32,000 bases of DNA. It comes from Patescibacteria group bacterium. GTDB lineage: Bacteria > Patescibacteriota > Patescibacteriia > 2-01-FULL-39-33. Position numbers and translations under genes: made by a program. The DNA lies in contig JBAZMW010000002.1 in assembly GCA_041649575.1 (NCBI GenBank), positions 180,001-212,000 on the forward strand, read 5' to 3'. Below, in pieces: positions 2 through 31,176 of the stretch (position 1 is its first letter; every line of letters begins with the position of its first letter). Below the pieces are notes generated by a model. That model did not search any database. It was given only the letters and a program-made list of their open reading frames with translations, and was not told where the DNA came from.

Positions 2-865
2 CCCAAAGATCATTACGATTTAGCTGTAGCTTTAGATATTATTGATTATGAACGCGCCGTCAAAATGTCTGGTTCCGGTTTTTGGATTTACAAAGGTGCC
101 GGCGCCATTTTGGAATGGGCCATTTTATCGTATTTTATAAAATTCCATCAGGCTAATGGCTATATTTTCATGATCCCGCCCTTTTTGCTCACCGAGCAGT
201 CAGCTTATACTTCCGGCCACCTGCCTAAATTCAGAGACGATTTATTTTGGACTCAAGACAAGCAGTGTCTCAATGCCACCAGCGAAATGATGTTGGGCAA
301 TTACCATCGTGACGAAATTATTCCCGAGCAGTCGTTGCCTCTTAAATATTGCGCTTACTCGGCTTGTTTCCGGCGTGAAGCCGGCAGTTACCGCAAAGAA
401 GAAAGGGGAATGATCCGCGGCCATCAATTTAATAAAATAGAAATGTTCCATTATACTCGGCCAGAGCAATCCTGGGATAGTTTTGCCGAGCTGGTGGCCA
501 GTGCCGAGAAATTAGTTGAGGGTCTAGGTCTGCATTATCAATCAGTACAATTAGCAGCCGAAGACGCCAGCGCCGCCATGGCCAAAACCATTGATGTAGA
601 GGCCTGGATTCCTAGTATGGCTAGTTATAAAGAGGTAAGCAGTGTTTCCAATGCGCTTGATTACCAGGCCAGGCGAGGCAATGTGCGTTACAAAAATAAG
701 GAAACAGGCAAAAATGAATTTGTTCATACTCTAAATGCCTCTGGTTTGGCCACTAGCCGTTTGATTCCGGCAATTTTGGAACAACTCCAGAACGCGGACG
801 GCTCGGTGGACGTGCCAGAAGTTTTGCAGCCATTCTGCGGTTTTGATAAAATTTTCAAGTGCTAA
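2..865 (+). CDS. serS: Seryl-tRNA synthetase, C-terminal catalytic part (5' end lies upstream of the window)
   Basis: Frame is open from the window edge (PKDHYDLAVALDIIDYERAVKMSGSGFW...). Class II aaRS core motifs FRREAGSYRKEERGMIRGHQFNKIEMF and TLNASGLATSRLIPAILE. Confidence 0.93.
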   Translation, partial: PKDHYDLAVALDIIDYERAVKMSGSGFWIYKGAGAILEWAILSYFIKFHQANGYIFMIPPFLLTEQSAYTSGHLPKFRDDLFWTQDKQCLNATSEMMLGNYHRDEIIPEQSLPLKYCAYSACFRREAGSYRKEERGMIRGHQFNKIEMFHYTRPEQSWDSFAELVASAEKLVEGLGLHYQSVQLAAEDASAAMAKTIDVEAWIPSMASYKEVSSVSNALDYQARRGNVRYKNKETGKNEFVHTLNASGLATSRLIPAILEQLQNADGSVDVPEVLQPFCGFDKIFKC

Positions 866-875
866 GTTTTAAATG

Positions 876-919
876 AAAATAAAACGAGCTGGCCGAATCG
901 TGTTGATTCAGCCAGCTCG
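876..919 (-). terminator. Intrinsic terminator oriented for the minus-strand 165-aa gene
   Basis: Perfect 9-bp stem CGAGCTGGC (885-893) / GCCAGCTCG (911-919) with a 17-nt loop. On the minus strand the stem is followed by TTTTATTTT (884-876); on the plus strand no T-run follows. Confidence 0.75.
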
Positions 920-2488: not shown

Positions 2489-3454
2489 ATGAAGAAATCA
2501 AATCTGCCTATTCTCAGTCAGTTTTCGGACTTTCTGGCCTATTGCGAGGTAGAAAAAGGTCTTAGCCCCATTTCTACCAGAAATTACCACAATTTTTTGA
2601 GAATGTTCGAAGGTTGGCTAAAAATCAAACATTTAACGCAGCTCAAGCCGCATGAGCTCACTCCAGAGCATGTCTGGGACTACCGGCTTTATCTTTCCCG
2701 TCGGCAAGACCGCTCTGGTCGCTATATCAAAAAAACCACTCAAAATTATTATTTAATCGCCCTTAGGAACCTTTTGAACTACTTCGCCGATAAAGATATT
2801 ATCTCTTTGCCTTCAGAAAAAGTTAAATTACCAAAATTAACCGAAAAAGACAAAGCGATAAAGTTTCTAAAGTTTGATCAGATAGAAAAGTTATTACAGG
2901 TGCCGGATGTCACCACTCTTGAAGGCCTAAGGGACAGAACGATTCTCGAAATTCTCTTCTCTACTGGTATGCGGGTTTCGGAGTTAACGTCGCTTAATAT
3001 CAAACAGTTTGATCGCCTAGCTTTACTAAAAAATAATTTTTCTGATCAAGAGTTAAGCATCGCTGGTAAAGGTGGTAGAACAAGAACGGTTTATTTTTCT
3101 CATCGAGCTTTGGGTTGGCTGGCTAGATACTTAAAAAACAGAAACGACCTCTATCCCCCGCTTTTTATTAACTATCGTCCCCATAATGACAGAGATGACG
3201 AGCACCGTTTAACGCCTCGTTCGGTTGAAAGATTGGTAAAAAGACACACCGTGATGGCCGGGTTGCCTGTTGATGCCACGCCGCACACCCTGCGTCATAG
3301 CTATGCCACGGATTTATTGGATCAGGGAGCAGATTTGCGCAGTGTCCAGGAGCTTTTGGGGCATAAAAATATTGTTACCACTCAAATTTATACTCACGTC
3401 ACCAATCAAAAGCTTCGCTCCATTCATAAAAAATTTCATAGTGGCAATCATTGA
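2489..3454 (+). CDS. Tyrosine recombinase, XerC/XerD family
   Basis: N-terminal SAM-like core-binding region (FLAYCEVEKGLSPISTRNY). C-terminal catalytic signature HTLRHSYATDLLDQGADLRSVQELLGHKNIVTTQIYTHV. Confidence 0.9.
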   Translation: MKKSNLPILSQFSDFLAYCEVEKGLSPISTRNYHNFLRMFEGWLKIKHLTQLKPHELTPEHVWDYRLYLSRRQDRSGRYIKKTTQNYYLIALRNLLNYFADKDIISLPSEKVKLPKLTEKDKAIKFLKFDQIEKLLQVPDVTTLEGLRDRTILEILFSTGMRVSELTSLNIKQFDRLALLKNNFSDQELSIAGKGGRTRTVYFSHRALGWLARYLKNRNDLYPPLFINYRPHNDRDDEHRLTPRSVERLVKRHTVMAGLPVDATPHTLRHSYATDLLDQGADLRSVQELLGHKNIVTTQIYTHVTNQKLRSIHKKFHSGNH

Positions 3455-6907: not shown

Positions 6908-7777
6908 TTATTTTTTCTTTACCACCAGCCACCCAAATTTAATGGTGGCATTATAAATCCTACTTAACCGGCGCGGTTCTTGGATTAGCCGATATAGCCA
7001 TTCTAACCCCAATCGCCTCAAAAATAAAGGCGCGCGTCTCACCTGTCCCGACAAAAAATCAAAAGTCCCGCCGACGCCAATCGCCACTTTAATTTTTGGC
7101 ACTTTGGCTAAGTTGTCTCTGATCCACTTCTCCTGCCTCACTTGCGGCAAGGCCACCAACAGAATATTGGCTTCGCTGGCATTAATTTTTTCCAGCACCT
7201 GATTGTTGTTTTCAAATTGCCAACATTTGTTTTCTATGGGATCCCCACGGCCGGCTTCGCCGGCCTCGGGATGACATTGTAGAAGCGGCCCGCCTTGGTC
7301 AAAGCCAGCCACTTTGCCAATATATTTTTCTGCCACTTGTTTTGCCGCTCCTTCTTTTCCGCCCAGTAAATAAATTTTATAAATGTCATTGCGAGGGAGC
7401 GCGAGCGACCGTCCGCCTAGGCTCGGCGAGACTGGTGGCAATCCCGTGGGATCACCGCGTTGCCCGGTCATTTGACCGGGCTCCTCGGGATGACAACTTA
7501 GAAGTGCCTCTATTAGATCCACGCCCGTCACTCTCTCTAATTTTTCTTGTTTTAAAAATTTAGCCGCCCAAACCAGCCCAGCGCCATCGCAGGTGGCCAA
7601 ATCAGCATTATTTAAAATATTTCTGAAAACTTCGTCTTTTTGCGCCGCCACCACAAATTCCGGATTAATCGTCACCACCTGCCTTTGGCCTTCCGCTGTC
7701 AGCCATTTTTTAATTAACTTCAAGGCTTCTGGCAAATTGACCTGATCGATTTTTATTCCCAGTATTTCTATTTTCAT
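6908..7777 (-). CDS. WecG/TagA/CpsF-family glycosyltransferase (GT26) carrying two in-frame GC-rich insertions
   Basis: Family-typical segments VVTINPEFVV, DLATCDGAGLVWA, IYLLGGKEG, ILLVALPQVRQEKW, AIGVGGTFDF and LEWLYRL. About 45-50 extra residues come from the repeats at 7238-7288 and 7384-7507. Confidence 0.8.
   Translation of the reverse strand: MKIEILGIKIDQVNLPEALKLIKKWLTAEGQRQVVTINPEFVVAAQKDEVFRNILNNADLATCDGAGLVWAAKFLKQEKLERVTGVDLIEALLSCHPEEPGQMTGQRGDPTGLPPVSPSLGGRSLALPRNDIYKIYLLGGKEGAAKQVAEKYIGKVAGFDQGGPLLQCHPEAGEAGRGDPIENKCWQFENNNQVLEKINASEANILLVALPQVRQEKWIRDNLAKVPKIKVAIGVGGTFDFLSGQVRRAPLFLRRLGLEWLYRLIQEPRRLSRIYNATIKFGWLVVKKK
7238..7288. repeat. GC-rich palindromic element, short copy, in frame inside the GT26 gene
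   Basis: GGGATCCCCACG + hairpin GGCCGGC-ttc-GCCGGCC + CTCGGGATGACAttgTAGAAG. It shares its ends with 7448-7507 and translates (minus strand) as LLQCHPEAGEAGRGDP. Confidence 0.7.
7384..7507. mobile_element. MITE-like GC-rich palindromic element, in frame inside the GT26 gene
   Basis: Imperfect terminal inverted repeats TGTCATTGCGAGG (7384-7396) and CCTCGGGATGACA (7483-7495). Internal hairpin CCCGGTCAtttGACCGGG. Translates (minus strand) as LLSCHPEEPGQMTGQRGDPTGLPPVSPSLGGRSLALPRNDI. Confidence 0.65.
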
Positions 7778-7780
7778 AAG

Positions 7781-8437
7781 CTACTTTTTTAGATAATTCA
7801 CGATGATTTTGGCCTGGCTCTGGTTTTCTTTGTCGTCCTTAAAAGACATCAGGCCAAAAATGTCGCCTTTCCAAAAGCCCAAATTAATTTCATAATCTGC
7901 CAGATTTTCCTTAAACTCAAAGCCGCTTTCCTTCAGCTTGTTTTTGTAGTAGCCGGCCACCTCTTCTTTCGGCTGGCTTATCTGTTTCCAGGACAAAGAG
8001 GTTGTTTCCATTTTTTTCAGTTCCGGCGAGCTTAGGGCTTTTTTTAATTCCTCCGGCGTAAAACCGCGCGACAAGTCTATTTTATCGGCAAAACTTTGGC
8101 TTAATTTAGCTTTCAAATCATTGGATAAATAAGCCAAAGTCGGCTTAAGCAGCCAGTTTGGTAAAAGGCCCATGATTTTCAAAAGTTTTTCCTTGCCTTC
8201 TGGCGTCTGCAGTTCAATCTCGGCTTTTTCCGGCAGATAAATGGCCAGTTCTTCCGGGAAATCACCCGGCAACTGGTTGACTTTTTCCACCACCGGAGAG
8301 ACCGCCAATCTGACAGCGGCAAAAAGAGTAATGAAGATAATTACCAACGCCAAAATTAAACAACCGAAAAATTTGATAAATTCTCGGCTTCTATTTTTTT
8401 CCGGATTGTTCAGGTTGAGTTCCTGCCAATTTTTCAT
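7781..8437 (-). CDS. Hypothetical membrane-anchored protein (single N-terminal TM)
   Basis: ATG at 8437 with ccAGGAaata upstream is preferred over the TTG at 8470 used by the track. TM FFGCLILALVIIFITLFAAV. No family recognised. Confidence 0.6.
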   Translation of the reverse strand: MKNWQELNLNNPEKNRSREFIKFFGCLILALVIIFITLFAAVRLAVSPVVEKVNQLPGDFPEELAIYLPEKAEIELQTPEGKEKLLKIMGLLPNWLLKPTLAYLSNDLKAKLSQSFADKIDLSRGFTPEELKKALSSPELKKMETTSLSWKQISQPKEEVAGYYKNKLKESGFEFKENLADYEINLGFWKGDIFGLMSFKDDKENQSQAKIIVNYLKK

Positions 8438-8483
8438 TATTTCCTGGCTAATTTTATTATATTCTAGCAAATACCAGCCTTTT

Positions 8484-8512
8484 TTGCAAAAGTAAATCAG
8501 TCTTGTTATAAT
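8484..8512 (+). promoter_or_regulatory. Sigma70-type promoter TTGCAA-N17-TATAAT (unit 1 of the island)
   Basis: TTGCAA at 8484-8489, a 17-nt spacer ending in TGT (extended -10), TATAAT at 8507-8512. Confidence 0.65.
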
Positions 8513-8518
8513 AAAAGT

Positions 8519-8725
8519 GGTTCATTTCCTCGAGACCCGAACTGGTCATTTGGGTCTCACCGCTCCGGTGGGGAAGCGAAACCAGCGCCTTCGCTTCCCC
8601 TCTGGCTTAACCAAAGCACCTTGGTAGCACTTCCCGGGTCTACTGAAAGCCGCATCCAGGCAAGCATTAGACCCGTTCCCGCTGTGGCGGCCGATGGCAT
8701 CAGTCATCAGCCGTCCTTTTTGTTT
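8519..8725 (+). ncRNA. Candidate structured ncRNA of about 205 nt, family not recognised
   Basis: Bounded by the promoter above and a hairpin plus T-run (GATGGC 8693-8698 / GCCGTC 8710-8715, then CTTTTTGTTT). Perfect stems: GAGACCC/GGGTCTC (8532-8538/8552-8558), GGGGAAGCGAA/TTCGCTTCCCC (8570-8580/8590-8600) and CGGGTCTA/TAGACCCG (8635-8642/8668-8675). No SD-preceded start codon. Confidence 0.5.
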
Positions 8726-8732
8726 ATCCACA
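8724..8732 (+). promoter_or_regulatory. Perfect TTATCCACA 9-mer (DnaA-box consensus), copy 1; part of a shared promoter-upstream motif
   Basis: Exact TTATCCACA, 31 nt upstream of the -10 hexamer of unit 2. The context TTATCCACAGtTAaaTATTTAT resembles the copy at 9120. Confidence 0.5.
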
Positions 8733-8760
8733 GTTAAATATTTATAACCAAAGAAATCTT

Positions 8761-8769
8761 TGCTATAAT
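8761..8769 (+). promoter_or_regulatory. Extended -10 promoter element TGcTATAAT (unit 2)
   Basis: TGCTATAAT at 8761-8769, with a weak -35-like TTTATA 17 nt upstream. Confidence 0.5.
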
Positions 8770-8775
8770 AAAATC

Positions 8776-9108
8776 ACATTGGACATGGGGCTTGTCAAAT
8801 GGCCCTGCAACCAGTCCGAACGGAGAACGAGCCATGAGAACAAAGACAACGAAGCGAGCAGCAGTGGGCGTGATGGTCGATGGCACCGGCGGAACAGCGT
8901 ACTTGGCGACGTCCTGACCTAACGAGAACGGTCGGACTGGGCGTCAAAGAAGTTCTCCGAGACGCTTGACTCAACCCAAGCGTCTCGCCGCACCTTAACT
9001 CTCCTCGGAGAGTTGTGACTATAGGTTTTCACGCTTTGACAAAGCGTGGACATCCCCCTAAGGTGAGCAGTCGGTTGCTGACAGGTAGCCGACTCTCTTT
9101 TTGTTTTT
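8776..9108 (+). ncRNA. Candidate transcript of about 330 nt: structured RNA and/or mRNA for a 27-aa peptide; family not recognised
   Basis: Strong terminator: 10-bp stem 9069-9078 / 9085-9094 (two G-U pairs), then CTCTTTTTGTTTTT. Long-range stem CCAGTCCGA (8811-8819) / TCGGACTGG (8932-8940). Hairpins GAGACGCTTG/CAAGCGTCTC (8959-8968/8977-8986), AACTCTC-ctcg-GAGAGTT (8997-9014) and CACGCTTT-gac-AAAGCGTG (9030-9048). Confidence 0.5.
8834..8917 (+). CDS. Possible 27-aa small ORF MRTKTTKRAAVGVMVDGTGGTAYLATS inside unit 2
   Basis: ATG 8834 with GGAG (8822-8825) 8 nt upstream; hand translated; enclosed by the 8811/8932 long-range stem. No other support. Confidence 0.3.
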   Translation: MRTKTTKRAAVGVMVDGTGGTAYLATS

Positions 9109-9119
9109 AAAAAATTTAG

Positions 9120-9128
9120 TTATCCACA
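9120..9128 (+). promoter_or_regulatory. Perfect TTATCCACA 9-mer, copy 2
   Basis: Exact TTATCCACA, 30 nt upstream of the -10 hexamer of unit 3, in the same orientation and relative position as copy 1. Confidence 0.5.
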
Positions 9129-9158
9129 GGTACTATTTATTTCTTTAAAAAATAGTTA

Positions 9159-9164
9159 TATAAT
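9159..9164 (+). promoter_or_regulatory. -10 hexamer TATAAT (unit 3, secreted-protein gene)
   Basis: TATAAT at 9159-9164 in an AT-rich stretch directly after the unit 2 terminator. The -35 is weak (TTTATT-like). Confidence 0.45.
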
Positions 9165-9253
9165 GAAAGTGCGGAAGGTATTTACGATAGCGTACAACCG
9201 AAGCAGGCCATCGGCCAAACGATCGGCCAAACGAAAGAAAGGTGGGACGGAAG

Positions 9254-9745
9254 ATGAGAAAGTTCGTGTTTTGTACGGTAGTACTGGCGTTCGCGTTTGT
9301 GATGATTCCGGCGACGAATACTCCGGCATACGCGACGCAACTCGATCAAGGCAAGGCAGTGGCGACGGCTCCGACGACGATGGGGACGACGCAGCAGGAC
9401 GTGCAGACGGCGATGAAGAGCAACCTGGTCCTCGACGGCACCGGGCAGAAAGTCGCTGAAGTGATGAAGGCGCCGACTCTTGACTCCGGACGAGTGATTG
9501 CGCAGACGGCGACGACGAAGACGGCACGCGAAGAGCAGACGAAGATCACGGCGAAGAGTGACACGGTTGTAACGGCGAAGATCGAAGCGCAAGGCATGGG
9601 CGAGCAGATGGCAGCGGCTGGCGAAGATGACGCTGGCACGATCATCGTGGCGACGAAGAGTGACACCTATGCGACGAGAATCGAGGGCCGTATCGCTCAC
9701 GACGCGGACGCGACCTTCAATGCGAACGTTCTGATCATCGGCTAA
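9254..9745 (+). CDS. Hypothetical secreted protein of about 163 aa, Thr/Ala/Lys/Gln-rich with an internal repeat; GC-rich cassette gene
   Basis: Signal peptide MRKFVFCTVVLAFAFVMIPATNTPAYA|TQ (basic n-region, hydrophobic core, AYA site). AGGTGGG lies 10 nt upstream of ATG 9254 (the track starts at GTG 9242). Repeat AKSDTVVTAKIE / TKSDTYATRIE. G/C-ending codons predominate. Confidence 0.7.
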   Translation: MRKFVFCTVVLAFAFVMIPATNTPAYATQLDQGKAVATAPTTMGTTQQDVQTAMKSNLVLDGTGQKVAEVMKAPTLDSGRVIAQTATTKTAREEQTKITAKSDTVVTAKIEAQGMGEQMAAAGEDDAGTIIVATKSDTYATRIEGRIAHDADATFNANVLIIG

Positions 9746-9830
9746 CCACGCGGGCAGCGCCGAAAGTCAGAACGAGTAGTACCTTGGATACACAACCGAT
9801 ACCGGCCAACAGTCGGATCGGCCACCTCCA

Positions 9831-9874
9831 GAGTTGGGTCAGCTGGCAACGGCGACCCTCTCTTTTTTTGTTTT
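9831..9874 (+). terminator. Intrinsic terminator of unit 3
   Basis: GGGTC (9836-9840) / GACCC (9854-9858), extended by GAG/CTC across a small internal loop, followed by TCTTTTTTTGTTTT. Confidence 0.6.
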
Positions 9875-9882
9875 GAAAAAAT

Positions 9883-9911
9883 TTGCCAAAATTTTATAAA
9901 TTTTTTATACT
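9883..9911 (+). promoter_or_regulatory. Sigma70-type promoter TTGCCA-N17-TATACT (unit 4)
   Basis: TTGCCA at 9883-9888, a 17-nt spacer, TATACT at 9906-9911. Confidence 0.6.
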
Positions 9912-9917
9912 ATAAGC

Positions 9918-10242
9918 AAGCGGTTCCTGCTGTGGGAACCGTGCACATTGGGTCAACGGGTCAACCGGAGGGTACAAGCAATATGAAAAAGGAAATGAGA
10001 GCGCAGGGTTTGGTCGTGGCGAAATGGAAGTAGGCTAGACCGTAGCAAGGCAACTTAGCGTTGTTGGGCGGAGGCCCCAACTAACAGTGGGCCTCCGCTG
10101 AATCTTTCCCTCGCTTGAGCGGGGTGCTGGTATATCCTTCTCTGAAGGGGTTCCCCCGTTGGGAAGTGTTGCCCATTCAACGCCTCCTGACCGCACAGGC
10201 TGCAATTTGTCGCAAGACGAAGGGCAGCCTGAATTATTTTTT
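9918..10242 (+). ncRNA. Structured RNA of about 325 nt directly upstream of amrS: stand-alone ncRNA or cis-regulatory leader ending in a terminator
   Basis: Stems CGGTTCC/GGAACCG (9921-9927/9935-9941) and GCGGAGGCCC/GGGCCTCCGC (10068-10077/10089-10098). Terminator CAGGCTGC/GCAGCCTG (10196-10203/10224-10231), then AATTATTTTTT. It ends 25 nt before the amrS ATG. Confidence 0.5.
9983..10033 (+). CDS. Possible 16-codon upstream ORF MKKEMRAQGLVVAKWK inside unit 4
   Basis: ATG 9983 with GGAGGG (9967-9972) 10 nt upstream; hand translated; no other support. Confidence 0.3.
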   Translation: MKKEMRAQGLVVAKWK

Positions 10243-10267
10243 GCTATACTTAATTTATACTGAATTT

Positions 10268-11143
10268 ATGAGAGCAGCCAAATTTTACAAAAAATCAGGG
10301 GCTAATGTTAAATGTCAGCTTTGTCGGCATTTTTGTCTGATTGCCCCAGCCAAGTTCGGCCTCTGCGGCATGAGGAAGAATATCGACGGCCGGCTTTATT
10401 CTCTTAATTACGGTAAAATCATTGCCAGCCAGATTGACCCGATCGAAAAAAAACCGCTCTATCATTTTTTGCCAGGCAGTTTTGCTTATTCTTTGGCTTG
10501 CCCCGGCTGTAATTTTAAATGCCTTAATTGCCAAAATTCCGATCTTTCCCAAATCACCCCGGCTTTACAAAAGGCCGTTGATTCTTTGCCGGAAACCAGG
10601 CCGGAAGAGATTGTCGAGGCGGCCTGGGAAAACAATTGCCCGTCAATCGCTTATACCTATACCGAGCCCACCATTTTTGCCGAGTTTGCTCTCGACTGCA
10701 TGGAGCTGGCCAGAGACAGTAATCTAAAAAATATCTGGGTTTCCAATGGCTATCTGTCGCCCGGTTGTCTGGAGGCCATCAGCCCCTATCTTGACGCCAT
10801 TAATATTGATTTGAAATTTTTTAGCGATAAAAATTATCAAAAAATTTGCGGCGCTCGCCTAAAACCAGTCTTGGATAATCTGGTTGCTTTTAAAACAGCC
10901 AAAATTCATTTGGAAATCACCACTTTAATCATTCCCTCACTTAATGATAGCGATGAAGAGTTAACCGCTCTGGCAGAGTTTATTTATCAAAAATTGGGCG
11001 ACGACACGCCCTGGCATCTGGGCGCCTTTCACCCCGCTTACAAATTAAAAAATTTACCGGCTACGCCGACAGAAACCATCAAGCGGGCCCAGGCAATCGG
11101 GAAAAATATCGGCCTGAAATATGTTTATCCGGGAAATGTTTGA
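10268..11143 (+). CDS. amrS: AmmeMemoRadiSam-system-type radical SAM enzyme (PflA-like activase fold)
   Basis: N-terminal Cys cluster VKCQLCRHFCLI..GLCGMR, DPIEKKPLYHFLPG, and the radical SAM CxxxCxxC motif in CPGCNFKCLNCQN. ATG 10268 is preferred: the track's TTG 10115 extension reads through RNA hairpins and a terminator. Confidence 0.85.
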   Translation: MRAAKFYKKSGANVKCQLCRHFCLIAPAKFGLCGMRKNIDGRLYSLNYGKIIASQIDPIEKKPLYHFLPGSFAYSLACPGCNFKCLNCQNSDLSQITPALQKAVDSLPETRPEEIVEAAWENNCPSIAYTYTEPTIFAEFALDCMELARDSNLKNIWVSNGYLSPGCLEAISPYLDAINIDLKFFSDKNYQKICGARLKPVLDNLVAFKTAKIHLEITTLIIPSLNDSDEELTALAEFIYQKLGDDTPWHLGAFHPAYKLKNLPATPTETIKRAQAIGKNIGLKYVYPGNV

Positions 11144-11239: not shown

Positions 11240-12595
11240 ATGAGAAAAAACTACCAATTAGCGGTATTATTTTGTTTTTTGCTTTTTTTGCTTTTACCCT
11301 TTACGGTTGGGGCGGCCGATTTCGATCCCGATTATCTGATTTCTGATACCGAATTGGCCAATCACAATTCTTTGGACCTGTCTGATATTCAAAGATTTTT
11401 GGACAAAAGAAATGGCACGCTCAAGGGTTATGTCACCCTTGATAAAGAAGGCAACCTAAAAACCGCCGTCCAGGCTTTTTTCGAGGTGGCGCAGAAGTGG
11501 CTGATCAACCCCAAATATTTGTTGGTGTTGGTACAAAAAGAGCAAAGCTTACTCGAAGATACCAATCCCTCCCAGGGCCAATATGACCGCGCTACCGGTT
11601 ATGGTTGTCCCGATACCGGCGGTTGCGACGACCGCTGGAAGGGCTTCTATCGCCAGGTAAATTCCGCCGCGGCTCAAACCCGCTATTATCTGGACAATAT
11701 TAATGAGTTTACTTATCAGCCGGGAAAGGCCTATAATATTGACGGGCAGTCTGTCACTCCCAAAAACACCGCCACCGCCGGTTTGTACAATTATACCCCC
11801 CATCTTCACGGCAATCAGAATTTCTGGAACCTTTGGAACCAGTATTTTGGCAAAAAATGGCCTAATGGCGCCCTGTTGCAAGCCGAAGGCGACGCTAGCA
11901 AGGTTTATTTGATTGAAAACGAAGAAAAACGCGAAATTATATCCAAAGCGGTTTTTGCCTCCCGCTTCGACAGTAAAAAAATAATCACTGTCGGCCAGGA
12001 AGATCTGGATTCTTATGACTCTGGCGTGCCCATAAAATACCTCAATTTTTCCCTGCTTAAAAGCAGCCGCGGCGACATTTACATGATCGTTGACGACCAA
12101 AAAAGAAAAATTGCCAGTCAGGAAGTTTTCAAAAAAATCGGTTTTATGGAAGATGAGGTGATTCCGGCGGATGACAGCGAGCTGGGCCTTTATAAAGACG
12201 GTCCCGAGATTACCAGCTATACCCTTTATCCCGCCGGGACGCTTTTGCAAGACAGCCAGACTAAACAAATTTTTTATGTCATCAGCGGCAAGAAGCGGCC
12301 AATAATCAATAAAGAAATCCTGGCTTTTAATTTTAACGGCTTGCCGGTCAAAAAAGTTTCTCCCGTCGAACTGGAATCGTACCGCTCTGGCAATCCCGTC
12401 ACCTTGCCCGATGGTGAACTGGTCAAAATCAAGGGAGCCAATACGGTTTACGTGATTTCCAATGGCAAACGTCTGCCGATTTTCAACGCCAAGATTTTCG
12501 AAAAAATGAATTATAAATGGACTAACGTCAAAACCGTTTCCAAAGAGACCCTGGAAGTTCATGAGCTGGGTCAAACCATCACCGGCGATTGGTAA
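11240..12595 (+). CDS. Secreted hypothetical protein (451 aa) with four C-terminal tandem repeats of about 55 aa
   Basis: Signal peptide MRKNYQLAVLFCFLLFLLLPFTVGAADF. Repeats begin KVYLIENEEKREI, DIYMIVDDQKRKI, QIFYVISGKKRPI and TVYVISNGKRLPI. Confidence 0.8.
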   Translation: MRKNYQLAVLFCFLLFLLLPFTVGAADFDPDYLISDTELANHNSLDLSDIQRFLDKRNGTLKGYVTLDKEGNLKTAVQAFFEVAQKWLINPKYLLVLVQKEQSLLEDTNPSQGQYDRATGYGCPDTGGCDDRWKGFYRQVNSAAAQTRYYLDNINEFTYQPGKAYNIDGQSVTPKNTATAGLYNYTPHLHGNQNFWNLWNQYFGKKWPNGALLQAEGDASKVYLIENEEKREIISKAVFASRFDSKKIITVGQEDLDSYDSGVPIKYLNFSLLKSSRGDIYMIVDDQKRKIASQEVFKKIGFMEDEVIPADDSELGLYKDGPEITSYTLYPAGTLLQDSQTKQIFYVISGKKRPIINKEILAFNFNGLPVKKVSPVELESYRSGNPVTLPDGELVKIKGANTVYVISNGKRLPIFNAKIFEKMNYKWTNVKTVSKETLEVHELGQTITGDW

Positions 12596-12624: not shown

Positions 12625-13416
12625 ATGTCTCTAGTTTTCGCGGCCATTGTGCCGCATCCGCCAATTCTCATACCCACCATTGGCAAAGAAAATTTGGAAA
12701 AGATACAAAAAACCCAAAAAGCCATGGAGCGTTTGGAGCAAGACCTTTATGCTTCCAAACCAGACATTCTAATCATAATTTCCCCTCATGGCGAAGTTCA
12801 GCATGATTTTTTTACCATCAACTTGTCTAATCAGTACCAAATTAGTTTTAACGACTTCGGCGATTTTGCCACCAAATTAGAAACCGGTGGCGACACTATC
12901 CTTATCTCGGTCAATAAAGAAAAAATCAACAGCCGCTCCCCTATCAATATTATTTCCGAGCCTAACTTGGACCACGGAATTGGCGTCCCTTTTTATTATT
13001 TGGGCCAACACCTCAAGGAAACCAAGCTGATCCCGATTTATTTTTCTTTGCTGGATAATTTGGCTCATTTGGAATTCGGCAAAAATCTGAAAGAGGCCAT
13101 TATGGGCACCGAAAAAAGAGTGGCCGTGGTGGCTTCCGGCGATTTGTCGCACTGCCTGACCGAAAACGCGCCAGCGCCTTTTAGTCCGGCTGGCAAAGAA
13201 TTTGATGAAAAATTAATCGCTTTGCTCAAAAATGGCGATACCCAGGGGGTGATTAATCTGGAACCAAAATTCATCGAAAGCGCCGCCGAATGCGGCCTGC
13301 GTTCGATTTTAATTCTTTTGGGAGTTTTGAATAACATTAGCTTTCAATCGGAAATCTTGAGTTATGAGGCGCCTTTCGGCGTCGGCTACCTGGTGGCGAA
13401 TTTCAAATTGGAATAA
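12625..13416 (+). CDS. LigB/Memo-superfamily protein (class III extradiol dioxygenase-like); possible AmrB-type partner of the radical SAM enzyme
   Basis: N-terminus FAAIVPHPPILIPTIG, then ISPHGEV, DHGIGVP and ASGDLSH motifs typical of the LigB-type fold. Confidence 0.6.
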   Translation: MSLVFAAIVPHPPILIPTIGKENLEKIQKTQKAMERLEQDLYASKPDILIIISPHGEVQHDFFTINLSNQYQISFNDFGDFATKLETGGDTILISVNKEKINSRSPINIISEPNLDHGIGVPFYYLGQHLKETKLIPIYFSLLDNLAHLEFGKNLKEAIMGTEKRVAVVASGDLSHCLTENAPAPFSPAGKEFDEKLIALLKNGDTQGVINLEPKFIESAAECGLRSILILLGVLNNISFQSEILSYEAPFGVGYLVANFKLE

Positions 13417-13803: not shown

Positions 13804-13833
13804 TTGACAAAACTTAGTATAAATTAATATAAT
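13804..13833 (+). promoter_or_regulatory. Sigma70-type promoter TTGACA-N18-TATAAT upstream of def
   Basis: TTGACA at 13804-13809 and TATAAT at 13828-13833. Confidence 0.6.
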
Positions 13834-13854
13834 ATAAAAAACTTAAATAAATTC

Positions 13855-14313
13855 ATGCTTCAAATACTAACCAATCCCAATCCAATTTTGCGCCAAAAAT
13901 CAGTCTTGGTCGCCGATTTTACTAATGAAGAAGTCCAGAAACTGGTGCCGGAAATGGCCGAGACTATGCTCAAAAAAGACGGGCTCGGTCTGGCCGCGCC
14001 ACAAATTGGTAAAAATATCAGATTGATAGTAGTGAGCCATAAGGATGGTGTTTTGGCTCTGTTTAACCCAAAAATTATTAAAAAATCTTGGTTTAAAGAA
14101 TGGGGCGAAGAGGGTTGTTTGTCTCTGCCGGATAAATACGGCGAAGTCAAACGTCATAAGAATATAACTGTAAAATTCGATGATACCACAGGCAAATCAG
14201 AATGTTTGGAAGCCAAGGGTTTATTGGCCAGAGTAATTCAGCATGAAATCGACCACTTGGACGGAGTTTTGTTTATTGATAAAGCTAGAAAAATCGTAAA
14301 TATCGACAAATAA
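13855..14313 (+). CDS. def: Peptide deformylase
   Basis: Three canonical motifs: GLGLAAPQIG, EGCLS and QHEIDHLDG. Confidence 0.95.
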   Translation: MLQILTNPNPILRQKSVLVADFTNEEVQKLVPEMAETMLKKDGLGLAAPQIGKNIRLIVVSHKDGVLALFNPKIIKKSWFKEWGEEGCLSLPDKYGEVKRHKNITVKFDDTTGKSECLEAKGLLARVIQHEIDHLDGVLFIDKARKIVNIDK

Positions 14314-14347
14314 AACACGAAGAACGGGCACCGGTTGGCACCCGTTC
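14311..14347 (-). terminator. Intrinsic terminator for the minus-strand small membrane protein gene
   Basis: GAACGGG (14322-14328) / CCCGTTC (14341-14347). On the minus strand the stem is followed by TTCGTGTTTTA; no T-run follows on the plus strand. Confidence 0.6.
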
Positions 14348-14378
14348 GGTTCCACAGAACAAACTCACGTCGCCTTGA

Positions 14379-14579
14379 TCACGCTGGCTCCAGCAGTCTG
14401 AAGCATATCATCATGCCGATGAAGCAACAGGCCGCCACAACCATTAAGCGCTCGATTCTCCTTTCCCAACCATGCCTCATGTTTTCATAGACGAGTGGGA
14501 TCGCAAAGCCGGAGAATAAGCCAATTAGGCCAAGAACCACCATGACCACTAGCAATGCACCGTGATATGCGGTAAACAT
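14379..14579 (-). CDS. Hypothetical 66-aa two-TM membrane protein; GC-richer cassette gene antisense between def and fmt
   Basis: ATG 14579 with AGGAGGG (14594-14588) 8 nt upstream. Two hydrophobic helices (ALLVVMVVLGLIGLFSGFAIPLV and LMVVAACCFIGMMICF) separated by the charged loop YENMRHGWERRIER. Confidence 0.65.
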   Translation of the reverse strand: MFTAYHGALLVVMVVLGLIGLFSGFAIPLVYENMRHGWERRIERLMVVAACCFIGMMICFRLLEPA

Positions 14580-14621
14580 GTCCAAGACCCTCCTGTGTCT
14601 GTTGAAATTGTGCTTGTCAAA

Positions 14622-14650
14622 AACATACCATTAAAATTTACAAATGTCAA
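14622..14650 (-). promoter_or_regulatory. Sigma70-type promoter TTGACA-N17-TATGTT for the small membrane protein gene; the -35 overlaps the fmt start codon
   Basis: The minus strand reads TTGACA (14650-14645), a 17-nt spacer, then TATGTT (14627-14622). The fmt ATG is at 14644-14646. Confidence 0.5.
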
Positions 14651-31105: not shown

Positions 31106-31176
31106 CTGGGAGACTAGGAATCGAACCTAGATTAAAGGCTTCAAAGGCCTCTGTCCTACCATTAGACGATCTCCCA
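31106..31176 (-). tRNA. tRNA-Gln (anticodon UUG)
   Basis: Hand-folded cloverleaf on the minus strand: acceptor TGGGAGA/TCTCCCA (U1-A72 as in bacterial tRNA-Gln), anticodon stem GAGGC/GCCTT with loop CT-TTG-AA, T arm CTAGG-TTCGATT-CCTAG, discriminator G. CCA is not encoded. Confidence 0.9.

Follow-up and report, generated by a model that had tools for sequence, protein, structure and literature searches.

A candidate accessory islet of four tandem promoter-to-terminator units between a membrane protein gene and amrS in a Patescibacteria chromosome

Orphan structured noncoding RNA candidates have reportedly been found as GC-rich intergenic regions (GC-IGRs) of AT-rich genomes, and published candidates of this kind are defined by multiple homologs with covariation. 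Small units in intergenic gaps are also found in tandem type I toxin-antitoxin (TA) and small open reading frame (ORF) loci, such as ldr, ibs/sib, zor/orz and aapA/isoA. A phage moron is a single unit with a promoter on one side and a terminator on the other; its composition is deviant, and it separates two genes that are neighbours in relatives (PMC4378225). Here we describe an island that resembles all three in part. It occupies positions 8484-10262 of a 32,000-nucleotide (nt) stretch, called the window, of contig JBAZMW010000002.1 from a Patescibacteria group bacterium. The island contains four consecutive units on the plus strand, each running from a sigma70-like promoter to a hairpin followed by a T-run. 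We read it as a moron-like accessory islet, specific to its lineage, at the variable junction of a membrane protein gene, called mem here, with amrS in a sparsely sampled Patescibacteria clade, and we put the probability of this reading at about one half.

An earlier note on this DNA, made from its letters alone, had proposed four same-strand promoter-to-terminator units, and a promoter scan together with the folded terminators bears this out. A consensus scan revealed 10 promoter-like sites in positions 8000-10800, compared with 2.3 +/- 1.5 in shuffled sequences. Promoter P1 (8484-8512, TTGCAA-N17-TATAAT, TG-extended; scan score 10/12) has a predicted transcription start site (TSS) at ~8519 and would produce unit 1 (8519-8725), a ~207-nt RNA with four hairpins, a terminator hairpin (8686-8715) and a T-run (8717-8725). 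P2 (8741-8769, TTTATA-N17-TATAAT, with the extended -10 TGcTATAAT; predicted TSS ~8776) was also identified by the scan. It precedes unit 2 (8776-9108), a ~333-nt RNA with a possible 27-codon small ORF (sORF) at 8834-8917, a hairpin-dense 3' region, and a terminator hairpin (9065-9097) with a T-run. P3 was missed by the scan and was read from the sequence; it has the -10 hexamer TATAAT (9159-9164), a weak -35 TTTATT (3/6) and a predicted TSS at ~9171. Unit 3 (9171-9874) would be a ~700-nt mRNA with an 83-nt 5' untranslated region (UTR), the Shine-Dalgarno (SD) sequence GGTGG, an ORF at 9254-9745, a 128-nt 3' UTR, and a terminator hairpin (9830-9863) with a T-run. P4 (9883-9911, TTGCCA-N17-TATACT; scan score 10/12; predicted TSS ~9918) precedes unit 4 (9918-10242), a ~325-nt RNA with a possible 16-codon sORF at 9983-10033, hairpins, and a terminator hairpin (10196-10231) whose T-run begins 5 nt after the stem. 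The proposed sigma70-like promoters are found in full for units 1, 2 and 4, whereas unit 3 has the -10 hexamer and three of six matches at -35. Although the terminator scan flagged unit 2 only, direct folding of the 3' ends gave energies of -18.9, -20.7, -18.9 and -24.7 kcal/mol for the terminator hairpins of units 1 to 4, with a T-run after each, in agreement with the stem-loop and T-run that had been proposed to close every unit. We infer that each unit is transcribed separately by a sigma70-type polymerase, with intrinsic termination.

The unit bodies are GC-rich, as the earlier note had stated, with a GC content of 0.55-0.61 compared with 0.43 for the window. The GC content at third codon positions (GC3) of the unit-3 ORF is 0.74 overall, and that of nine native genes is 0.41-0.53. 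The translation signals differ as well. An SD is essentially absent from the 26 native genes of the window, whose anti-SD duplex energies are ~+2 to -3 kcal/mol; the exceptions are gltX (-6.2 kcal/mol) and one glycosyltransferase (-5.7 kcal/mol). Several native genes look leaderless or short-leadered, with a -10 hexamer only 6-20 nt before the ATG (e.g. amrS, 10242-10270, and def, 13806-13857). In contrast, every ORF in GC-rich cassettes has a strong SD (-6.6 to -10.8 kcal/mol), including unit 3 (-8.0 kcal/mol) and the ORFs of two similar cassettes elsewhere in the window, a 165-amino-acid (aa) ORF (-8.0 kcal/mol) and a membrane protein ORF between def and fmt (-10.8 kcal/mol). The same contrast between native genes without SD and accessory genes with SD is seen in a relative, L083. 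The deviant composition and SD usage mark the units as accessory or foreign.

The two other cassettes are both on the minus strand. The first, a fifth GC-rich cassette at 885-1534, has a perfect TTGACA-N17-TATAAT promoter, the SD GAGGAG and a hairpin plus T-run terminator. Its 165-aa ORF (939-1436; GC 0.57, GC3 0.68) encodes another singleton protein: nothing similar was found among 5.8 billion clusters, or in Pfam, PHROG or PADLOC. The second (14314-14643) has the SD AGGAGGG, the terminator gaacgggtgccaaccggtgcccgttc followed by a T-run, a GC content of 0.49 and no family match. Its ORF (14379-14585) encodes a two-helix membrane protein of 66-68 aa.

Based on the sequence, unit 3 is the one convincing gene of the island. 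Its ORF encodes 163 aa and is a called gene in the NCBI annotation (WC518_02045), so that the earlier term intergenic island is right for the gap between mem and amrS and wrong if taken as purely intergenic. The ORF shows strong 3-base periodicity, with GC3 up to 0.94 in 96-nt windows, and its start is the sole one with a strong SD among the 29 plus-strand start codons of unit 3. Read from the translation, the protein begins with a Sec-type signal peptide, composed of MRK, a hydrophobic core and the cleavage motif AYA/T, and would be exported as a mature protein of 135 aa. Unit 1 has no codon periodicity, no SD-led start on the plus strand and no plausible ORF. Unit 2 has a 58-nt leader, GGAG-N8-ATG and 27 codons (SD -6.6 kcal/mol), and unit 4 has a 65-nt leader, GGAGGG-N10-ATG and 16 codons (SD -10.0 kcal/mol). 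SD-like motifs precede 10-25% of all start codons in the purine- and GC-rich bodies of these two units on either strand, with a strong SD at 5 of the 18 start codons of unit 4, and codon periodicity is weak in both. Units 2 and 4 look like hairpin-chain RNAs that start like small mRNAs, and their micro-ORFs are doubtful. The predicted peptides, MRTKTTKRAAVGVMVDGTGGTAYLATS and MKKEMRAQGLVVAKWK, are not hydrophobic. An exact look-up of ten small ORFs from units 1 and 2 and the 5' part of unit 3 found none in the collection, possibly because non-ATG starts were translated literally. The periodicity, the SD site and the signal peptide agree with the earlier view that unit 3 alone has a convincing protein.

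The mRNA-like starts of units 2 and 4, with leader, SD and ATG, yet a stop after 27 and 16 codons, could indicate that units 1, 2 and 4 are decaying foreign remnants, either pseudogenised small genes with their 3' regions or captured terminator-rich intergenic DNA. They would retain promoters and terminators but have no current function, and unit 3 would be the sole live gene. Foreign composition and singleton status are consistent with decay, as is a 'DGTG' motif common to the unit-2 sORF and the unit-3 protein. In addition, the C-terminus of a 76-aa protein encoded in L083 weakly matched part of unit 4 in tblastn, out of frame (E 0.022, search space 1.8 kb). The match is a lone one without a start codon; we took it as chance and rejected orthology between unit 4 and the L083 gene. 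Residual codon periodicity is absent from unit 1 and weak in units 2 and 4, and neither the hairpin enrichment described below nor the intact strong terminators and promoters are expected of drifting DNA. A streamlined genome of the Candidate Phyla Radiation (CPR) would also be expected to delete junk. We consider decay unlikely.

The earlier note had described many perfect stems of 7-11 bp, and units 1, 2 and 4 are indeed hairpin-dense beyond chance. The island contains 13 perfect stems of at least 7 bp (loop 3-30), compared with 2.46 +/- 1.56 in 200 dinucleotide shuffles, an approximately 5-fold excess that none of the 200 shuffles reached. Units 1, 2 and 4 have three each, none lies inside the unit-3 ORF, and the count in native genes is at expectation. 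The three in unit 1 compare with 0.24 expected; those of unit 2 (11, 7 and 8 bp) are in its 3' region, and those of unit 4 measure 7, 10 and 8 bp. Unit 1 folds with a minimum free energy (MFE) of -85.7 and z-scores of -5.15 on the plus strand and -3.78 on the minus strand, i.e. about equally on both strands. The plus and minus z-scores are -2.63 and -0.68 for unit 2, and -3.28 and -1.97 for unit 4. Unit 3 has a plus-strand z-score of -0.15 and no stems. A scan of the window with Rfam 15 at gathering thresholds gave a single match, a tRNA at 31106, and no family in the island. At E<=10, positions 8300-10400 gave four noise matches only (14-22 bits, cut-offs 36-85). ARAGORN found no tRNA or tmRNA in the island. 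These results agree with the earlier statement that no unit could be matched to ribonuclease P RNA, tmRNA, signal recognition particle RNA or a known riboswitch. The best reading of unit 1 from its sequence is an orphan noncoding RNA, probably a chain of independent stable hairpins.

Two RNA interactions were considered and rejected. Unit 1 could act as an anti-SD small RNA against the SD-bearing cassettes, but its unpaired C/U-rich segments pair no better than shuffled segments. The SDs of units 2 and 3 are predicted to pair with a distal 3' element (p>0.9), but the duplex energies are no stronger than with shuffled 3' regions, which argues against long-range SD sequestration.

Homology searches revealed no relative of any unit. 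For the unit-3 protein, a word-indexed search of 5.8 billion clusters and a full phmmer search of 1.84 billion representatives both returned only the protein itself, and no Pfam, PHROG, PADLOC or NCBIfam model matched. Its single-sequence AlphaFold model has a predicted local distance difference test (pLDDT) score of 42.7 and is unusable. The four unit bodies are unrelated to each other. Their DNA has no blastn match in 80 amrS-centred loci of GTDB representatives or in mem-linked contigs of relatives and is absent from the phage and plasmid collections searched; four viral scans gave no match to the units. A pattern scan of metagenomes with the 11-bp hairpin of unit 1 yielded 33 matches, all unrelated hairpins. 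The homolog search that the earlier note had called for thus left the unit-3 protein a singleton and found no DNA homolog in these collections. That note had also tied its proposal beforehand to conservation and covariation in related genomes; neither was found, as far as the sparse sampling of the clade allows.

These results bear on the possibility, favoured by the earlier note, that units 1, 2 and 4 are functional, novel structured noncoding RNAs, trans-acting or protein-binding, of an undescribed RNA-based system in a CPR lineage. The significant folding z-scores and the 5-fold excess of perfect stems are consistent with such a system, as are the plus-strand folding advantage of units 2 and 4, the GC-rich bodies in an AT-rich genome, the strong promoters and terminators, and the lack of any Rfam match. 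A hairpin-dense unit in another relative, L121, lies at the same junction and is unrelated in sequence yet equally rich in hairpins (z -5.45). On the other side, no homolog was found on which covariation could be assessed, the bodies are mutually unrelated and absent from syntenic relatives, and they have no structure in common with the L121 or L083 units. No protein gene is associated with them. Old conserved RNAs have irregular helices, whereas these stems are long, perfect and independent; unit 1 folds about equally on both strands; and anti-SD pairing and SD sequestration do not exceed shuffles. We regard an RNA-based system as improbable, and the earlier proposal of conserved novel RNAs is not supported by these data.

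The junction between mem and amrS in relatives provided insights into the history of the island. In L003 (gltX 50% and amrS 56% identical), wecG and amrS are head to head with an 82-nt gap, without mem and without an amrS leader. The L004 junction has unrelated genes, one of them LigT-like and the other a 72-aa ORF, within an AT-rich gap of 1.35 kb. Two short contigs, L083 and L121, keep mem and amrS adjacent, and each contains exactly one autonomous unit in the amrS orientation. The L083 unit (392-889, minus strand) has a TTGACA-N17-TATAAT promoter, the SD AGGAGGG, the 76-aa ORF (an orphan ORF, or ORFan) and 190 nt of 3' region (z -2.9); the T-run of its terminator merges with the amrS -10, the same layout as in the window. 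The L121 unit (535-832, minus strand) has the same TTGACA-N17-TATAAT promoter, an apparently noncoding 263-nt body and a terminator at its end. This body has a GC content of 47.5%, compared with 37-39% around it, and is hairpin-dense (MFE -92.2, z -5.45, as noted above). There is no sequence similarity among the L083, L121 and window units, alignment of the L083 and L121 units with those of the window gave no credible common structure, and neither matches an Rfam family. Both L083 and L121 units have an unpaired CTCCTTCCGC 10-mer just before a hairpin (~0.2 expected by chance). Judged from these sequences, the mem-amrS junction appears to be a recurrent host of small autonomous units whose content turns over completely. 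The pattern may reflect separate insertions at a permissive spot, or one ancestral unit that has diverged beyond recognition and, in the window, expanded to four.

A terminator-bearing unit directly upstream of amrS in the window, in L083 and in L121 raises the possibility that unit 4 is a long cis-regulatory amrS leader, attenuation- or riboswitch-like, with the terminator abutting amrS as the regulated element. Unit 4 is co-oriented with amrS and contains a short leader ORF. Between the end of its T-run and the amrS ATG there are 26 nt, and the T-run overlaps the -10 of amrS. But amrS has an extended -10 of its own (TGcTATACT, 10242-10250) and looks leaderless or short-leadered here, in L003 and in L083, and no leader at all is present in L003. 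No pairing that could serve as an alternative antiterminator was identified, the 16-codon ORF stops 160 nt short of the terminator and lacks attenuator-type codon bias, and the three upstream units show no conservation of sequence or structure. We give a leader function of unit 4 little credence.

The AT-rich spacers are the only parts of the island with modules shared between units. A 25-nt terminator tail is 92% identical between units 2 and 3, and the spacer module TTTGTTTATCCACAGTTA after unit 1 corresponds to TTTAGTTATCCACAGGTA after unit 2. The perfect DnaA-box consensus TTATCCACAG / TTATCCACA(G) has just two copies in the 32 kb, both in the island on the plus strand: TTATCCACA at 8724-8732, 31 nt upstream of the unit-2 -10 hexamer, and at 9120-9128, 30 nt upstream of the unit-3 -10 hexamer. 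The two copies sit in homologous, duplicated spacer modules, and the box is better conserved than its surroundings. As a lead only, the TTATCCACAG box may be a regulator site for both promoters, given its position 30-31 nt upstream of the two -10 hexamers. A chromosomal replication origin was considered and rejected: there are only two DnaA boxes, and the GC skew stays negative past the island without a switch.

The abrupt alternation in GC content between bodies and spacers, together with the lack of homologs, might also result from an assembly chimera that joined GC-rich foreign fragments into a Patescibacteria contig. The window belongs to a 235-kb contig of a Patescibacteria metagenome-assembled genome, and the source assembly is ENA ERZ27247363 (k141_2894300, MEGAHIT; NCBI locus tags WC518_...). 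Run SRR8542065 was assembled independently by Logan, and this assembly shows 100% identity throughout the 1797 bases that span the island and its flanks; the Logan contigs end inside wecG, not at the island borders. To produce a chimera, junctions would have had to form four times in succession, each time with a promoter and a terminator of native style, and the spacers share duplicated modules. Because the two assemblies are identical across the island and the Logan contigs break elsewhere, a chimera is very unlikely, with a probability that we place close to zero. The earlier note had named a chimera as a ground for refutation, and the comparison of the two assemblies showed no sign of one.

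If the island is an accessory islet, host RNA polymerase would read each unit from its own near-consensus sigma70 promoter and stop at its own intrinsic terminator. Unit 3 would be the mRNA of an orphan Sec-secreted protein. Unit 1 would serve as a stable small RNA or a small-peptide mRNA, and the same may hold for units 2 and 4. The unit bodies would most likely have come from a source that is GC-richer and uses SD sites, or have evolved under the rules of such a source, and the AT-rich spacers would carry partly duplicated terminator-tail and promoter modules, including the TTATCCACAG box. The units may have a horizontal origin and a trans-acting or small-protein function.

Several points weigh against the islet reading. 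No donor of the unit bodies was identified, and ORFans are more often AT-richer than GC-richer relative to their host genome. The promoters and spacers look native, so either the units were not imported whole from a foreign source or they have been re-fitted since. Sampling of the clade is very sparse: amrS has its best relative at 56% identity, and mem has only 7 relatives, at 43-49% identity. With flanking proteins of the closest relatives only 43-56% identical, 'not conserved' is a weak statement. The hairpin-rich L121 unit, a positional analogue, could be a fast-evolving but orthologous functional RNA, and the junction would then not record independent insertions. Finally, the long perfect Watson-Crick stems have no explanation if the island is an islet of this kind.

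A stronger proposal is that the mem-amrS junction is a dedicated fast-evolving expression locus for one to four autonomous units, SD-led or hairpin-chain, with complete sequence turnover, and that these units form a previously undescribed class of small RNAs or secreted micro-effectors in the CPR. We find this quite improbable. If true, the units could function, for instance, in episymbiont-host interaction, and they would be marked by a strong SD that the SD-less core genome does not use, implying a separate translation regime for accessory genes.

If the units of the accessory islet that we prefer are expressed, a phylum in which almost nothing is known of regulatory RNAs and of factors for host interaction would gain orphan genes for small RNAs, small proteins and secreted proteins. 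The contrast between a core that is SD-less, partly leaderless and AT-rich and cassettes that are GC-rich and SD-led, with their own promoter and terminator, could provide a simple signature for recently gained CPR genes, and it raises the question of how the genes in accessory cassettes are translated. With no conserved part and no hint of a partner protein or mechanism, the island as it stands makes no long-standing question open to testing.

The island lies in a neighbourhood of serS, ftsQ, gltX, wecG, amrS, def and fmt. On its left, mem (7781-8437, minus strand) encodes a 218-aa membrane protein and is divergent from unit 1. It has native composition (GC3 0.52) and no Pfam match, and it is a neighbour of wecG in its seven relatives. 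On its right, the amrS ORF (10268-11143, plus strand) has no SD; its product matches TIGR04337 at 293.9 bits (cut-off 220) and Radical_SAM. Further along, amrS is separated from the Memo/LigB-like amrB (12625-13416) by the gene of a 451-aa signal-peptide protein (11240-12595). Pfam gave no match for this protein, and its C-terminal 120 aa match phrog_9616 (unknown function, E 2e-21); it is an unusual insert within the AmmeMemoRadiSam gene cluster.

Repetitive extragenic palindromic (REP) sequences and miniature inverted-repeat transposable elements (MITEs) were also considered for the units. This was rejected: a search of 52 kb of the contig found no second copy of any unit segment, and a different GC-rich palindrome occurs twice in wecG, not in the island. 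These two wecG elements (minus strand, 7235-7278 and 7385-7500) are GC-rich and palindromic, with the termini TGTCATCCCGAGG ... CCTCGCAATGACA. They are in-frame insertions that encode the peptide inserts 'SCHPEEPGQ...RGDP...' and 'QCHPEAGEAGRGDP', and they resemble a MITE-like element surviving in coding sequence. The Logan assembly breaks within wecG.

Two features of the same contig outside the window were noted as well. L119 (14420-14632, minus strand), ~4 kb to the left of the window, contains a ~190-nt GC-rich leader with the promoter TGTTATATT, followed by a class II aminoacyl-tRNA synthetase gene (498 aa). The 3' end of the leader forms a GGGGAGC...GCTCCCC hairpin with a T-rich tail; it has no Rfam hit and a z-score of -1.6, and it may be an undescribed or divergent cis-regulatory leader. 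Homology between unit 1 and this leader was rejected, with the promoter alone being similar. L084 (6675-7037), ~2-2.2 kb past the window end, contains a tRNA cluster with a duplicated tRNA 3' fragment, GGTTTACGATACCGTTGCTCTACCAATTGAGCTA, present twice; one copy is apparently a partial tRNA remnant.

Among known systems, integron arrays share with the island same-orientation tandem cassettes, orphan content, a hairpin at each 3' end and a variable spot. In contrast, the island units have their own promoters, and their 3' hairpins are terminators. The only tyrosine recombinase nearby, a 321-aa protein (2489-3454) encoded 5 kb away, scores best as XerD/XerC; the integron-integrase model scores 101 bits against a cut-off of 265. 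In a search for attC sites (RYYYAAC ... GTTRRRY), one R''/R' pair at a suitable distance was found; it is a chance occurrence that is not repeated at the other unit ends. We therefore rejected an integron array. Type I TA loci resemble the island in having tandem same-strand small units in a gap, with a copy number that varies among relatives, and highly structured mRNAs whose SD is predicted to pair with a distal element. This assignment was rejected as well: the peptides are not hydrophobic, no minus-strand promoter lies inside the units, the units are not paralogous, and SD sequestration is not above chance.

GC-IGR candidates share with the island GC-rich, hairpin-dense bodies in a genome of 43% GC, a promoter and a terminator, significant z-scores and, for unit 1, no coding signal. 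They differ in that the island has no homologs and its perfect stems stand independently, instead of building a conserved multi-helix architecture. The phage moron differs from the island in its setting, since the island is located in a bacterial chromosome among housekeeping genes, with no phage DNA match and no PHROG for the unit proteins, and in number, with four units in tandem here, three of them without a convincing protein. The likenesses are as follows. All four units have their own sigma70 promoter (the -10 hexamer only in unit 3) and a factor-independent terminator. Their composition differs from that of their neighbours, with a GC content of 0.55-0.61 compared with 0.43 and a GC3 of 0.74 compared with ~0.5. 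Their content is of orphan function. And, as in a moron, the insertion lies between two genes, wecG and amrS, that are 82 nt apart in L003, a comparison drawn with distant relatives of 50-56% protein identity.

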